Shown here: one piece after another, positions 1 to 5,802 of the stretch
Position numbering within the stretch: position 1 is the first letter of the stretch
Layout: each line of letters starts with the position of its first letter
Virus record (IMG/VR): IMGVR_UViG_2663763413_000005
Strand: one strand, 5' to 3'
Origin: a virus
Taxonomy: Duplodnaviria > Heunggongvirae > Uroviricota > Caudoviricetes
Length of the DNA stretch: 5,802 nucleotides
Position numbers and translations under genes: made by a program
Notes under the pieces: generated by a model
What the model was told of the DNA's origin: nothing
The model's database searches: none
What the model saw: only the letters and a program-made list of their open reading frames with translations

Positions 1-1
1 G

Positions 2-208
2 GCAAATCAGGGAAAACTACAGGGTGTGCTGGTCAGCCTGACCAATCTGACCGGCGTGGCGGGCCCGCTGCTGTTTGCTTTTATTTTCAGTCAGACACAG
101 CAGAGTGCGGACGGTACGGTGTGGCTGATTGGCACGGCACTGTACGGTCTGCTGCTGGCAATCTGTCTGCTGATCAGAAAACCGGCACCGGTGGCGGCCA
201 CCTGCTGA
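2..208 (+). CDS. C-terminal fragment of an integral membrane transporter (possibly MFS-type); 5' end lies outside the window
   Basis: Reading frame is open from base 2 to a TGA at 206-208 (the track ORF 26..208 begins at an internal GTG). Translation is strongly hydrophobic (…[14 protein letters not shown]… and …[18 protein letters not shown]…), consistent with two transmembrane helices followed by a short charged tail. Family assignment is by general resemblance only. Confidence 0.4.
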
Positions 209-302
209 CCGGCGCTATACAGGCAGCGCTGTTGTGCGGTATGGTGGACGGCATTCGTGCTTATCGCCTGCCATGATAAGCCTCAGACACAGAGGAACCG
301 TT

Positions 303-542
303 ATGAAATCACGCGCAGCAGTCGCCTTCGGGCCGGGTTTACCCCTTGAAATTGTTGAAATTGATGTGGCACCGCCGAAGAAAGGTGAAGTGCTGGTGAA
401 AATCAGTCACACCGGGGTATGCCATACCGATGCCTACACGCTTTCCGGTGATGATCCGGAAGGTCTGTTCCCGGTGGTGCTCGACCATGAAGGTGCCGGG
501 GTGGTGGTTGAGGTCGGTGAGGGCGTGACCAGTGTGAAACCT
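303..542 (+). pseudogene. frmA: S-(hydroxymethyl)glutathione dehydrogenase / class III alcohol dehydrogenase, N-terminal ~80 codons only (3'-truncated remnant)
   Basis: ATG at 303 is preceded by AGAGGA (288-293). Translation [80 protein letters not shown] matches the N-terminus of E. coli FrmA/AdhC as I recall it. The match ends at about 542; the frame then runs on to 635 through unrelated Ala/Phe-rich sequence that is the antisense of the stf remnant. The track ORF start at 234 is an upstream alternative start. Confidence 0.7.
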
Positions 543-1000
543 GCGCTGTTAGCTGCGTTCGTTTCTGAGGTTTTCGCCGCGTTCTTCGATGATGCCGCTG
601 CTGTTTCGGATTTCTTTGCCGCCGCTGCGCTCTGAGAGGCGGCTTCAGCGTTGCGTGCCGCTTCTTCCACCATTTCCTCAAAACGACGCAATGCCTCCGG
701 CATGACATCATCTTCCGTCATGGCACCGAGAAAATCATTCAGCGTCCCCGGCTTAGAATCTTCATACACGGTGATGGTCCCGGCATGTGAAGGCGGAAAA
801 CCTTCAACCAGCAGGATAACGCTGTACTGGCCATACTCAACATCCATGCTGTAACGCCCGGCTTCATCCGGATTTTCAGAGGCCACCGTGTTCACCAGTA
901 CCGTGGTGCTGTTACGCTTTGCCTTCAGTTGAATAGTGCAGTTCTGTATTGGTTTTCCCGCACCATCTTTCAGCACACCTGAGATTTTTACTGCTGCCAT
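540..1000 (-). pseudogene. stf: Side tail fibre protein Stf, N-terminal ~150 codons only (3'-truncated); the ORF reads on into antisense frmA-like sequence to a stop at 434
   Basis: ATG at 998-1000 (minus) with GGAG five nt upstream. Translation MAAVKISGVLKDGAGKPIQNCTIQLKAKRNSTTVLVNTVASENPDEAGRYSMDVEYGQYSVILLVEGFPPSHAGTITVYEDSKPGTLNDFLGAMTEDD… matches the N-terminus of lambda Stf (orf401), followed by the Ala/Ser-rich repeat region. Similarity stops around …[12 protein letters not shown] (about 540-555). The remaining 33 codons ([17 protein letters not shown]…) are the reverse complement of the frmA-like gene. Confidence 0.75.
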
Positions 1001-1011
1001 ATCCACTCCAC

Positions 1012-1038
1012 AAAAAAGCCCGCCTGAACCGGCGGGCT
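1012..1038 (-). terminator. Rho-independent terminator downstream of lom (minus strand)
   Basis: Minus-strand reading is AGCCCGCC-GGTTCA-GGCGGGCT followed by TTTTTTG: an 8-bp GC-rich stem (plus 1017-1024 / 1031-1038), 6-nt loop and T-tract (plus 1012-1017), placed between the lom stop (1065) and the stf start (1000). Confidence 0.6.
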
Positions 1039-1064
1039 GTCATAACACTGTGTTACCTGGCTAA

Positions 1065-1664
1065 TCAGAACTTATAACCGACACCCACGATGAAACCGTC
1101 AGTGCGCCAGTCACCACTGCCGGAGCCTTCATAAGCAATATCAATGGCCACGGATTCGGTCGGGTTAAACTGCACGCCAGCTCCCCACGCCAGAGACGTG
1201 TTGCTGTGGCGACCGTCATCACTTCCGGTCAGCACATCGTGCGTTTTCCCCTTGTTGTCAGTTACGCGGAGGTAATCCCCGGAAAAAGTCGAAACACGGC
1301 TGTAAGCCATACCCGCCATCGCATACGCGCTGAACCATTCATTCACGCGCACAGACGGCCCCGCCATCACGCTGAACCAGCGGTTACGCACGGAATCTTT
1401 ATGCCAGCGGGTATCGCTGTAACGGGTCAGCTGACGATTCTTGTATCCTGCATAACTGAATGACGTCACCAGCCCCAGCGTGTCCGTAAATTCATAACGG
1501 TATTTCACGTTAATGCCCTTCAGGTCATCACTGCCTGGCATATCAGTATGGGTCTGAAGATACCCGGCGCTTAGTGTGGACTGATGCTCTGCTGCGCTCG
1601 CTGGCGTACCAGCGGCAACCAGCCAGACTACTGCGGACAGAATAACAGCACATAATTTACGCAT
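1065..1664 (-). CDS. lom: Lom outer-membrane protein (Ail/Lom/OmpX/PagC family 8-stranded beta-barrel), intact
   Basis: 199-aa ORF with ATG at 1662-1664 and GAGAGG Shine-Dalgarno 6-7 nt upstream. Signal-peptide-like N-terminus MRKLCAVILSAVVWLVAAGTPASA, C-terminal …GFIVGVGYKF ending in an aromatic residue as in outer-membrane beta-barrels. Near-identical over most of its length to lambda Lom as I recall it. Confidence 0.92.
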   Translation of the reverse strand: MRKLCAVILSAVVWLVAAGTPASAAEHQSTLSAGYLQTHTDMPGSDDLKGINVKYRYEFTDTLGLVTSFSYAGYKNRQLTRYSDTRWHKDSVRNRWFSVMAGPSVRVNEWFSAYAMAGMAYSRVSTFSGDYLRVTDNKGKTHDVLTGSDDGRHSNTSLAWGAGVQFNPTESVAIDIAYEGSGSGDWRTDGFIVGVGYKF

Positions 1665-1688
1665 AATTACCTCTCGCTTTTCTGCAAT

Positions 1689-1712
1689 AAAAAAGGCGTC
1701 ATTTCTGACGCC
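1689..1712 (-). terminator. Rho-independent terminator between J and lom (tJ-like), minus strand
   Basis: Minus-strand reading is GGCGTCA-GAAA-TGACGCC followed by TTTTTTATTG: a 7-bp stem (plus 1695-1701 / 1706-1712), 4-nt loop and T-tract (plus 1689-1694), lying between the J stop (1732) and the lom start (1664). Confidence 0.7.
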
Positions 1713-2828
1713 CGTATTGGGGTTATAAAATTCAGCTGATACTGATGCCTGCAGTGGCTTTCTTCATCACAACAACCAGCAAATCGCTGATACTTGCTGT
1801 GGGATACCAACCATTTACCCACCATGCTGATACAGAAAACTCCAGTGTCATTACACCACTGCCTGCAGGCATATCAATAACACCCGTGTAAATCAGAGTA
1901 TTATCCAGAGCCGTTCGGTTATAAATTTCAGCCCCGTTTTTCTTCACTATCAGGCGGCATGACGAATAAGTATCGCTATTCTCCCGCTCATGTCTGGCAC
2001 CGCAGAAAGCCACCGCTGGAATAACAATTTGCCGGTCAAACGACTGATCGTCATAAACCCTGACGGTAATAGTCCCTGATGGCCACCGCTCCGGTGCACG
2101 GGAGTCCCGGGGGAAAGCTTTGCCCACTGTTTTAACGAGATCGCCTTCAATCTGGTTCGCGGACAGTTTTCCCAGAACCCGACAGTTCTCGTTAATCGTG
2201 ACATTATTGAGCGTCCCGGAGTTCGCATTCACGTTACCGCTGATATCGGCATTTTTCGCCGTCAGCCGCCCGTCCGGTGTCAGGGAAAATACCGGAGGAT
2301 TGCCGCCACTGGTAATGGTGGGAGCCGTCAGATACTTCAGGAACACTTCGTTCATGAATATCTGGTTGCCCTGCGCCACAAACATCGGCGTTTCATTCCC
2401 GTTTGCCGGGTCAATAAACGCGATACGGTTAGCGGCAACCAGGAACTGGCTCAGTTTGCCTTCCTCCGTATCCTCCATACTAAGGCCAAGCCCCGCGACA
2501 TAATGCCTGCCGTCTTCGGTCTGCTCAATTTTGACGCCCCACATGGCATTCCATTTATCGTTGGCGTCCTTCCACTCTTTCGAAAACTCCTCCAGTTTGC
2601 TGGCGTTATCCTCCGTCAGCTCGACTTTTTCCAGCAGCTCCTTGCCGAGATGGGATTCGGTTATCTGGCCTTTGAAAAAATCCAGGTAACCTTCCGCATC
2701 ATCGCTCGGCTGACCAACAGCCTCCACGAATGCCGATTTGCCAACGGTGTTCACACTGCGGATATAAAAGTAATAATCATGGCCCGGTTTGATATTGATA
2801 CTGGCAGCTATCCAGTACAGCGCCGTAC

Positions 2829-2873
2829 CAAGATAGCGGGCTGTGGTCTCAAGATAGCGGGCTGTGGTCTCAA
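2829..2873. repeat. Perfect 21-bp tandem duplication (unit AGATAGCGGGCTGTGGTCTCA at 2831-2851 and 2852-2872)
   Basis: Read directly from the sequence. In frame within J, duplicating the peptide ETTARYL. Confidence 0.9.
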
Positions 2874-3210
2874 CCTGCCTGATATCGGTAATCCGCTTTT
2901 CCGAGAACCAGAACTCAAACTGTACCGTCGGATCATAAACCGCAAGATGCGGCGTGGCAGTTATCTGAAAATAGCCCGGCGTCAGCTCAATCCGCGACGG
3001 CGCTGCCGGTGCGGCAATCCGGAACGATACCGATGCCGGATCGCCCTGCTGTCCCCACGCATTTACCGCCCGGACCGTCAGCGTGTAACGCCCCAGCGCC
3101 AGTTGCCTGAAGCGGTATGTGGTTTCCGTCGTCCTGGCCGTGCTGACCAGCCGCTCACTGCCGTCATCCGCTGCCACGGTCAGGCGAAGCATAAAGCTCA
3201 CCCCCTTCAC

Positions 3211-3269
3211 CACCTTCGGCGTATCCCAGCGCGCCAGCACCTTCGGCGTATCCCAGCGCGCCAGCACCT
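3211..3269. repeat. Perfect 27-bp tandem duplication (unit ACCTTCGGCGTATCCCAGCGCGCCAGC at 3212-3238 and 3239-3265)
   Basis: Read directly from the sequence. In frame within J, duplicating the peptide LARWDTPKV. Confidence 0.9.
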
Positions 3270-3541
3270 GATACTCCCCGCTGTCTGAGGTGACTTCGGC
3301 AGTCAGGTGCTGCACCGCAGGCGGCGTGACACCATTCACCGTGCCGCTCTGGTCGCCGTCAAAGTGCGCCCCGTTATCCACGATGGCCTCTTTTTCCGGC
3401 ACATGCTGCACGGCGGTGATGGCATACGTGCCGTCGTCGTTCTCACGGATACTCACGCAGCGGAACAGGCGCTGGCGCAGCGTCGGCAGCTTCAGCCCCC
3501 ATACGCTGTATTCAGCAACACCGTCAGGAACACGGCTCACT

Positions 3542-3555
3542 TTTACCTTTACCTT
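3542..3555. repeat. Short 6-bp tandem repeat (TTTACC x2 plus partial), encoding a KVKVKV run in J
   Basis: Period-6 identity over 3542-3555. Protein reads [12 protein letters not shown], where lambda J as recalled has [10 protein letters not shown]. Confidence 0.6.
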
Positions 3556-3652
3556 CACGCCGTCGGTGACGGACTGAACCTCCACGCTGACCGGATTGCC
3601 ACTTCCGTCAACCAGACTTATCAGCGTGGTACCGGAGGATGGCAGCGTGATT

Positions 3653-4225
3653 TCACGGTCGAGCGTCAGCGTCCGGGTCTGGCTGTTCACCGCCAGCCAC
3701 GCGCCCGCCGATGCTGATACCCGCATAGTCATCATCACAGATTTCAATGACATCCCCCGGTACATGGCGAAGCCCTTCCGCACCCACGCTGAAGTCCACG
3801 GTCTGCGTTTCCAGCAGTTCCGTTTTAATCAGCCACAGCCCGGCGCGGTGCGCCTGCCCCCGGCTGGTACAGCCAAAGGCATCCATCTTCGTGACGTTAC
3901 GACCGTAACGGGCAATGGCCTGCGTATCTTCAACAAGCTCTGTCGCCGTCTCCCAGCCGTTGTTCGGGTCAATCCAGTTCACCTCAACGGCATTATGGCG
4001 GTCCTTCAGGGCGCTGAAGCTGTAGCGGAACGGCGCGCCATCATCCGGCATCACCACATTACTGCGGTTATAGGTCCACACCTTATCTGATGGTCGGTCC
4101 TGCACGAACGTCAGCGTCTGCCCGTTCCATACCGGCATACAGCGCATCGCCGAGCAGAAATCACTGAGCACATCCCACGCCTTGCGCTGTGTGGTCAGCC
4201 AGGCATTACAGGTGATGCGCGGCCT
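3653..4225 (-). pseudogene. J: J fragment 2 (middle), in the +1 frame relative to fragment 1
   Basis: Part of track ORF 3653..4330. Translation from PRITCNAWLTTQRKAWDVLSDFCSAMRCMPVWNGQTLTFVQDRPSDK… through …[22 protein letters not shown] matches lambda J, then runs out of frame ([14 protein letters not shown], stop at 3653). Confidence 0.8.
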
Positions 4226-4247
4226 CATTACAGGTGATGCGCGGCTC
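4204..4247. repeat. Near-tandem direct duplication: 20-bp unit CATTACAGGTGATGCGCGGC twice (4204-4223, 4226-4245) separated by CT; net 22-bp insertion
   Basis: Read directly from the sequence. Located inside J and coincides with the first frame break. Confidence 0.9.
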
Positions 4248-5204
4248 CGTGCCACCAAAGCCATCCGGCACCGACTGGTCGCAATTCTGGCCGATGACAT
4301 ACAGCGCCCATTTGTCCACATCCGCCGCACCGAGACGCTTCCCCATGCCGTAGCGCGGATGGGTCAGCATATCCCACAGACACCAGGCCATGTTGTTGCT
4401 GTATGCTGGCTTAAACGTTCCGTCCCAGATACCGCTGTATTGTCGCGTCTGCGGGTTATAGTTCGACGGCACCTGCAGAATGCGCCCGCGAAGATGATAA
4501 TTACGACTCACCTGCTGGCTGCCGAACTGCTCCGAGTCCACCTGTACGCTGACCAGTGCCGTGTTCGGGTAGCACTGTTTCACATCGATGATTTCGGTGT
4601 ATGACGACCAGAGCGTTTTGTTCTGCAGCTGGTCTGTGGTGCTGTCCGGCGTCATCCTGCGCATCCGGATATTAAACGGGCGCGGCGGCAGGTTATCCAC
4701 CACCACCGAGGCCAGATACTGCGAGGTGGTTTTGCCTTTAATGGTGATGTCTTTTTCCGTCACCCAGCCACCGTTACGCTGTATCTGAACCAGCAGGCGG
4801 ACTTCCGACGGATTCCGGTCCCCCTTTGAGGTGGTTTCCACCAGTGCCTGCACACCGAAGGTAAAGCGCAGACGGTCGATGTTTGCAGACGTGATGGTCC
4901 GGGTAATCGGCGTGTCGTACTTCACTTCCGTACCCAGCACCGTCTCGGAGCCGGAGGATTCAAATCCCTCCGGCGGTGTCTGCTCCTGCTCACCTGCCCG
5001 GAACACCACCGTGACACCGGAGATATTGGTATTCCCCTCACTGTCCAGCACCGGCGTACTGTTCAGCAGCACACTTTTTAATCCGTCCACCGGACCTTCA
5101 ATCGGCCCTTCACTGATGGCGTCTATCACGCTCAGCATCTGGGATGATTTCAGGTTGTCCTTCGCTTCGCGCGGGGTATGCCCCTTACTGCTGCCTTTAC
5201 CCAT
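4206..5204 (-). pseudogene. J: J fragment 1 (N-terminal, 332 codons), ending at a premature TAA created by the 22-bp duplication
   Basis: Track ORF 4206..5204. Translation matches the lambda J N-terminus up to …GGTEPRITCN, then reads EAAHHL and stops. Confidence 0.85.
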
Positions 5205-5226
5205 TCCTCACGCTCCAGAAACGACA

Positions 5227-5246
5227 AAACCGCCCTGAGGCGGTTT
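5227..5246 (-). other. Inverted repeat / hairpin in the I-J intergenic region (possible weak terminator or RNA structure)
   Basis: Plus strand AAACCGCC-CTGA-GGCGGTTT (8-bp stem, 4-nt loop). On the minus strand it is followed by TTTTGTCGTTTCT, which is only moderately U-rich, then the J Shine-Dalgarno sequence. Confidence 0.3.
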
Positions 5247-5264
5247 CACACAAAACATTCTGCA

Positions 5265-5802
5265 TCAACGACCAATCACCACAACCTGACCACCATCTCC
5301 TTCATCTGCCGTGCTGATCTCCTGCGAAATCACCCGTGACCCCACGCGCATTTCACCGTACAGAACCGGCAGAACATTGCCCTGGGCAACCATGTTATCC
5401 AGTGAGGAGAAATAGGTGTTCTGTTTGCCGTTATCCGTTGTCTGTGTACGGGGAGTTCTGGCTTTCGGTGCCAGCATCTGCGCCACACCACCGAGCACCA
5501 TACTGGCCCCCGCACCATACATTCCTGTAATTGCGGCAGCCCCCAACCAACCTGCAGGGTTCCACCATGCCACCGCAATCAGCGCCGCCCCCAGCACACT
5601 GCCTGAAAAAGACCGCCACTTTTGGCTCCCGCCAGACGCGGCACAATGTGGATCACGGCACCATTTGCCAGCGGTTCATTAAGACGGGCGGATAATTCAG
5701 TTTCACCTGCATCACGCCCGGCAATACGTACCTGATACCAGCCGTCGCTCAGTTTCTGACGAAACGCCGGAAGCTGTGTGGTCAGCGCCCGGACTGCTTC
5801 GG
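5265..5802 (-). pseudogene. I: Tail assembly protein I, 5' end outside the window, with a frame break near 5598-5606
   Basis: From the window end, one minus-strand frame reads EAVRALTTQLPAFRQKLSDGWYQVRIAGRDAGETELSARLNEPLANGAVIHIVPRLAGAKSGGLFQ and then hits TGA within a few codons. The I-like sequence continues in a different frame as VLGAALIAVAWWNPAGWLGAAAITGMYGAGASMVLGGVAQMLAPKARTPR…VVIGR (track ORF 5265..5597). Both halves match lambda I as recalled. Confidence 0.8.

Follow-up and report, generated by a model that had tools for sequence, protein, structure and literature searches.

Does the single surplus base that splits the host specificity gene J of a lambdoid prophage record the decay of that gene, or did it enter when the contig carrying it was built? 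The sequence analysed here, called the window throughout, is a stretch of 5,802 nucleotides that an exact-protein look-up identified as the entire contig AOQJ01000313.1 (5802 bp, reversed) of the fragmented draft assembly GCA_000397385.1.

The tail module and the extra base in J

Most of the window is occupied by a prophage tail module on the minus strand, with genes I, J, lom and the start of stf identified from the ORF list and from the annotation of the Escherichia coli UPEC132 prophage. Positions 1..541 (tet(D)-adh') are unrelated to the prophage and are of a type known from resistance islands and plasmids. The features of the window are:

1..541, plus strand: resistance-island fragment made up of the tet(D) 3' end (running to 208) and the start of a class III alcohol dehydrogenase gene (first 239 bp of adh, 303..541), from genome matches
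542..1006, minus strand: N-terminal remnant of stf (side tail fibre), ending at the junction 541/542, from ORFs and the UPEC132 comparison
1065..1664, minus strand: lom (Ail/Lom outer-membrane beta-barrel), intact and downstream of J, from the ORF list and UPEC132 annotation
1732..5204, minus strand: J, lambda-type tail tip attachment and host specificity gene, from the ORF list, Pfam and the alignment to lambda gpJ
4206..5204, minus strand: N-terminal ORF of J, 332 aa, from the ORF list
3653..4330, minus strand: middle ORF of J, 225 aa, from the ORF list
1732..3783, minus strand: C-terminal ORF of J, 683 aa, from the ORF list
5265..5802, minus strand: tail assembly protein gene I (lambda I type), running off the contig end, from UPEC132 annotation

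The identity of J was established from its domains, from an alignment and from its position. Six Pfam domains scored above their cut-offs across the three J ORFs (FNIII-A_GpJ, Phage-tail_3, Ig_J, Ig_J_second, Phage_Tail_Tip and Ig_GpJ_C), and all six are also found in the protein that results when the insertions described below are removed. This repaired J aligns end to end with lambda gpJ (PDB 8iyk_J; residues 1-1130 to 1-1131, E = 0). Its place after K/I and before lom and stf, taken from the UPEC132 annotation and from gene calls on sister contigs, is that of the lambda order, and Pfam Lambda_tail_I is found on the upstream piece of gene I in the sister contigs. Thus, repaired J shares with lambda gpJ (PDB 8iyk, 8k35 and 8xcg) its length of 1131 aa, its domain set and the I-J-lom-stf synteny, whereas the deposited J differs from it in being cut into three ORFs by a 22-bp and a 1-bp insertion and in carrying 18 extra residues. 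The single frame of about 1130 codons is absent from the deposited gene (332 + 225 + 683 aa) and is regained only without the insertions. Judged by its sequence, the underlying gene is a wholly ordinary gpJ, and the gene family is already well known.

The base in question lies where the 225-aa and 683-aa ORFs overlap in different frames. At 3711..3681, the minus-strand sequence is atc ggc ggg cgc gtg g ctg gcg gtg aac agc c, and the coding-strand reading given in the preliminary description (GGC GGG CGC GTG G CTG GCG GTG AAC) is confirmed in the deposited sequence. The form of the site with the extra G, within window 3600-3800, is GTGGCTGG. Aligned with the intact UPEC132 gpJ gene, the comparison with an intact homologue that the preliminary description had asked for, the site at 3697 has exactly one surplus base, and this base alone separates the middle and C-terminal ORFs. 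Deleting one G joins them, as had been proposed, and the product is a continuous lambda-type gpJ frame of 865 codons. The insertion falls near residue 495 of the 1131-aa gpJ, at the end of the Phage-tail_3 domain. It had also been suggested that the base sits in a GG run, a context typical of slippage or of a homopolymer error. This part is not supported: only one G stands at this point of the parental sequence (GTG CTG), and the GG arises solely through the insertion.

Insertions relative to the intact prophage

As a reference we used the intact prophage of E. coli UPEC132, the closest complete genome, compared over window 542..5802 (5261 nt). Along this length the window differs by 1 substitution, 6 insertions (21, 27, 6, 1, 22 and 2 bp) and 0 deletions. 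The sole substitution in the 5.26-kb prophage part, at 5690, is private relative to UPEC132, to both sister contigs and to GCA_949813115. The gpJ of UPEC132 (WP_000515309.1) belongs to a lambdoid prophage adjacent to sit, and the 5.26 kb are identical to it apart from the one substitution and the six insertions, all placed by alignment to UPEC132:

2829..2873, minus strand: 21-bp exact in-frame tandem duplication in J (ETTARYL twice)
3211..3269, minus strand: 27-bp exact in-frame tandem duplication in J (LARWDTPKV twice)
3542..3555, minus strand: 6-bp in-frame tandem duplication in J (AAGGTA), turning VKVKV into VKVKVKV
3697..3698, minus strand (coding strand G, plus strand C): 1-bp insertion in J, GTG CTG to GTG G CTG
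4204..4245, minus strand: 22-bp insertion in J, consisting of a direct copy of 20 bp and 2 filler bases (coding strand AG)
5599..5600, minus strand: 2-bp insertion (AG on the coding strand) that duplicates nothing and frameshifts gene I

The preliminary description had pictured J as carrying two independent lesions, the extra base and a 22-bp duplication. This picture has to be replaced, as there are five insertions in J (22, 1, 6, 27 and 21 bp) and a sixth, of 2 bp, in gene I. The size of the 22-bp insertion was given correctly, but it is not a pure duplication. It frameshifts J at 4204 and ends the N-terminal 332-aa ORF, while the three in-frame duplications (21, 27 and 6 bp) add the 18 extra residues, which are missing from all close relatives. 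When the five J insertions are removed, the encoded protein is identical to the 1131-aa UPEC132 gpJ. The two frameshifts were also considered as a compensating pair, but the sum 22 + 1 = 23 cannot be divided by 3, and J stays broken if either insertion alone is removed.

Exact tandem copies account for four of the six insertions, with the extra base (G to GG) counted among them. The dinucleotide AG recurs as the filler at 4204-4245 and as the 2-bp insertion at 5599-5600; as a speculation, it could be an untrimmed remnant of a read start. The longer duplications, including one of 28 bp in the sister assembly AOQL described below, measure 20, 21, 27 and 28 bp with a microhomology of 0-5 nt, neither of which is constant. 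Near-complete adjacent exact duplicates with a period of 12-80 number 3 in the 5.8 kb of the window; the background, about 1.18 Mb from other lambdoid loci with sister contig L007 left out, also contains 3. The insertions are therefore clustered far beyond chance.

The searches for other carriers of the extra base found none. A 71-nt query centred on the site found the extra base in 0 of 6388 J copies from 3772 complete E. coli genomes, with a best identity of 70/71, and all six insertions are missing from the best whole-window matches among 5,426 complete E. coli genomes. The motif with the extra G gave 0 exact matches in IMG/VR and 0 in JGI metagenome contigs, while the intact 25-mer without it is present in at least 120 viral contigs. 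Among indexed public assemblies, AOQJ01000313.1 is the only contig on which any of the three J fragments, as called, is recorded. UTI89 and NU14 are among the best matches to a 601-bp query covering window 3400-4000 only, with 594 bases spanned at 98.8% identity, which fits identity save for the 7 inserted bases. Almost certainly, the true sequence of J is that of the intact gpJ of 1131 aa carried by many uropathogenic-type E. coli.

Sister assemblies and the 541/542 junction

The same prophage is present on two contigs with neighbouring accessions, AOQN01000031 and AOQL01000047, and on a 5.3-Mb contig of GCA_949813115, and none of these three carries any of the five J insertions of the window. 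In AOQN, J is intact (1131 aa), which is no proof that J is intact in the isolate behind the window; gene I and lom each have a +2 particular to this contig. In AOQL, J contains two duplications, a perfect tandem one of 28 bp and a garbled one of 48 bp that stutters and has errors inside it; the tape measure gene has a +3, and gene I a net +2. All length changes in AOQN and AOQL are insertions. Over the 6 kb upstream of gene I, AOQN is otherwise identical to UPEC132 and AOQL has 2 substitutions; a few further substitutions lie in the stf repeat region of both, and AOQL has another 2 in J.

Two sites recur among the same-batch assemblies. In J, the 21-bp copy of the window and the 28-bp copy of AOQL abut the same nucleotide (L001 3788/3789): the 28-bp duplication (AOQL01000047, L007, 8691-8746) starts where the 21-bp one ends, and the stuttered 48-bp duplication (L007 8894-8941) follows 175 nt downstream of it. 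In gene I, each of the three same-batch assemblies has a different net +2 within the same ~20 bp (window 5595-5615; L006 5985-5990; L007 5985-6000), which looks like an error-prone or hard-to-assemble site. The sister contigs were reached through a 110-aa ORF downstream of the gene I frameshift, a route that selects for gene I frameshifts. Ascertainment of this kind accounts for part of the recurrence in gene I, but not for its tight localisation.

The other end of the window is unusual as well. At 541/542, tet(D)-adh' is joined straight to the prophage stf, with neither Tn2 nor IS26 present. The adh fragment of the window stops at 540/541, no more than 1 bp from the point at which the Tn2 inverted repeat (GGGGTCTGACGCTCAGTGGAACG...) starts in E. 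coli 266917_2 and genomes like it. The junction itself occurs in no complete E. coli genome, 0 records covering at least 80% of window 1-760. In contrast to the tet(D) join of the window, stf runs on uninterrupted in UPEC132 and both sister contigs, and UPEC132-type genomes, in which stf continues normally, are free of the insertions. The junction is probably a chimeric contig join, in which an end due at the boundary of the multi-copy Tn2 was fused to another contig end. Just past the breakpoint, the stf N-terminal region of relatives holds 189-bp and 42-bp tandem repeats (L001 992-1440; L006 11042-11556), which could make short-read contigs end there. Within the adh fragment, window 484 has a private G-to-A change that turns the conserved GHEG into DHEG; the tet(D)-linked relatives listed all have G at this position (99.8% identity, one mismatch).

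Origin of the extra base

Taken together, the comparisons make it very probable that the extra G is an assembly or consensus error made in building this small draft contig and is absent from the bacterium. The remaining insertions probably arose by errors of this type as well. This reading is based on (i) an insertion-only spectrum on a near-identical background, (ii) the uniqueness of the insertions, (iii) the filler bases and the garbled duplication in AOQL, (iv) breakpoints that recur with different outcomes, (v) the restriction to one batch of fragmented drafts and (vi) the chimeric-looking junction. The six insertion-only differences, together with the private insertions of the sister assemblies, point to the way the contig was built; slippage of the polymerase inside the cell fits less well. 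Filler bases are not a product of replication slippage. In addition, six insertions per 5.3 kb would, genome-wide, amount to thousands of frameshifts, a load that is not viable. The preliminary description had itself named sequencing error as the alternative that would refute a real insertion. The evidence indeed favours an error, but a simple homopolymer miscall fits less well than an error of contig building.

How such errors could have arisen is suggested by the form of the insertions. J is found at a median of 2 places per E. coli genome and is multi-copy in most E. coli, and several near-identical J copies in most genomes would make the region hard to assemble. Overlapping read or contig ends that were concatenated where they should have been merged would leave short direct duplications, 20-28 bp long and in some cases carrying 2 filler bases; a further 1-2 bases would come from miscalls in the local consensus; and a contig end due at the Tn2 repeat boundary would have been joined to an unrelated contig end. 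Draft assemblies are described as containing negative-length gaps, in which contig ends overlap, and low-quality overhangs at contig ends (PMC2884544). The literature on false duplications at contig joins lends general support, including gap closers that alter contig flanks; it yielded no tool-specific match for duplications of this form. The insertions share with draft-assembly errors that they are insertion-only, private and clustered, that they include filler bases and recurrent breakpoints, and that they accompany a chimeric-looking join at a transposon boundary. They differ in that their lengths match no single fixed k-mer overlap, and a single k-mer overlap was rejected as the cause of the duplications on account of this inconstancy (20, 21, 27 and 28 bp).

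If the extra base is an artefact, the contig is no evidence for either a tet(D)-prophage junction or decay of J. Pseudogene calls on short contigs of old drafts, especially in multi-copy prophage regions, would then need to be checked against reads before any biology is drawn from them.

There are three other ways to read the extra base. It may be a real, recent and private frameshift that makes J a pseudogene in a decaying prophage, whatever the other insertions are. Prophage genes decay; the host does not need the tail genes, and these often become pseudogenes. A frameshift of J confined to one isolate would be unremarkable. The base is unambiguous in the deposited sequence, a polymerase can by error copy a neighbouring base twice, and the prophage on this contig also lacks most of stf. 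A real frameshift at codon 495 would lead through 14 out-of-frame codons to a stop, so that functional tail tip protein would not be made. It would inactivate a prophage tail gene in this isolate alone, which is nothing out of the ordinary. We nevertheless regard this reading as unlikely. The rest of the 5.26 kb is only one substitution away from an intact prophage, which leaves almost no time for decay, and a decayed prophage would be expected to show substitutions among its lesions and deletions at least as numerous as insertions, a pattern absent from these 5261 nt. The mutation spectrum of E. coli is dominated by substitutions and biased towards deletions. Six insertions and no deletions alongside a single substitution run counter to that spectrum and weigh against real decay. 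The extra base is also missing from all other public sequences searched, and the same-batch assemblies have other private insertions, one of them plainly garbled.

A second alternative, far less probable, takes all insertions as real and ascribes them to short tandem duplications that arose in a local burst within the tail genes I and J, for example through repair synthesis at recurrent nicks or breaks. It would account for the strong clustering of the insertions over background, and a site-specific lesion could produce the pattern of recurrent breakpoints, in which different duplications abut the same J nucleotide in two assemblies and three assemblies differ at the same gene I site. A repeat structure shared by the assemblies, breaking them at the same places, predicts recurrent breakpoints equally. 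To our knowledge, no such localised duplication process exists in E. coli, and nothing independent supports one here. The filler bases and the stuttered 48-bp copy resemble unmerged read ends, the duplications were seen in one batch of fragmented drafts only and in 0 of 5,426 complete genomes, and the same contig has the chimeric-looking junction. Were all the duplications real, they would be recurrent, site-localised and different from isolate to isolate, and would imply that a receptor-binding gene of a prophage is the target of a hitherto unrecognised duplication process linked to breaks or nicks. Of the readings considered, this unlikely one alone would have mechanistic interest.

Finally, a programmed ribosomal frameshift or a phase-variable switch regulating J, for which nothing speaks beyond the presence of a frameshift within the gene, is for practical purposes effectively refuted: the run is 2 nt (G to GG) with no slippery or repeat tract, set against the ~7 units or more that we required of a tract able to slip reversibly; the site is unconserved (0/6388 J copies, 0 viral or metagenome contigs); and the frame is already lost upstream, at the 22-bp insertion, so that recoding could not restore J, 22 + 1 not being divisible by 3.

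The remaining relative differs from UPEC132 in another manner. The contig of GCA_949813115.1 (CATKVN010000001.1, L005) shows mostly scattered single-base deletions, by which L, K, I, J and the tape measure gene are broken up; a small group of substitutions is clustered in its tail genes. One of its changes is a -1 in a T run adjacent to the gene I +2 site. The deletions are probably uncorrected long-read indel errors, a signature that differs from that of the AOQ assemblies.
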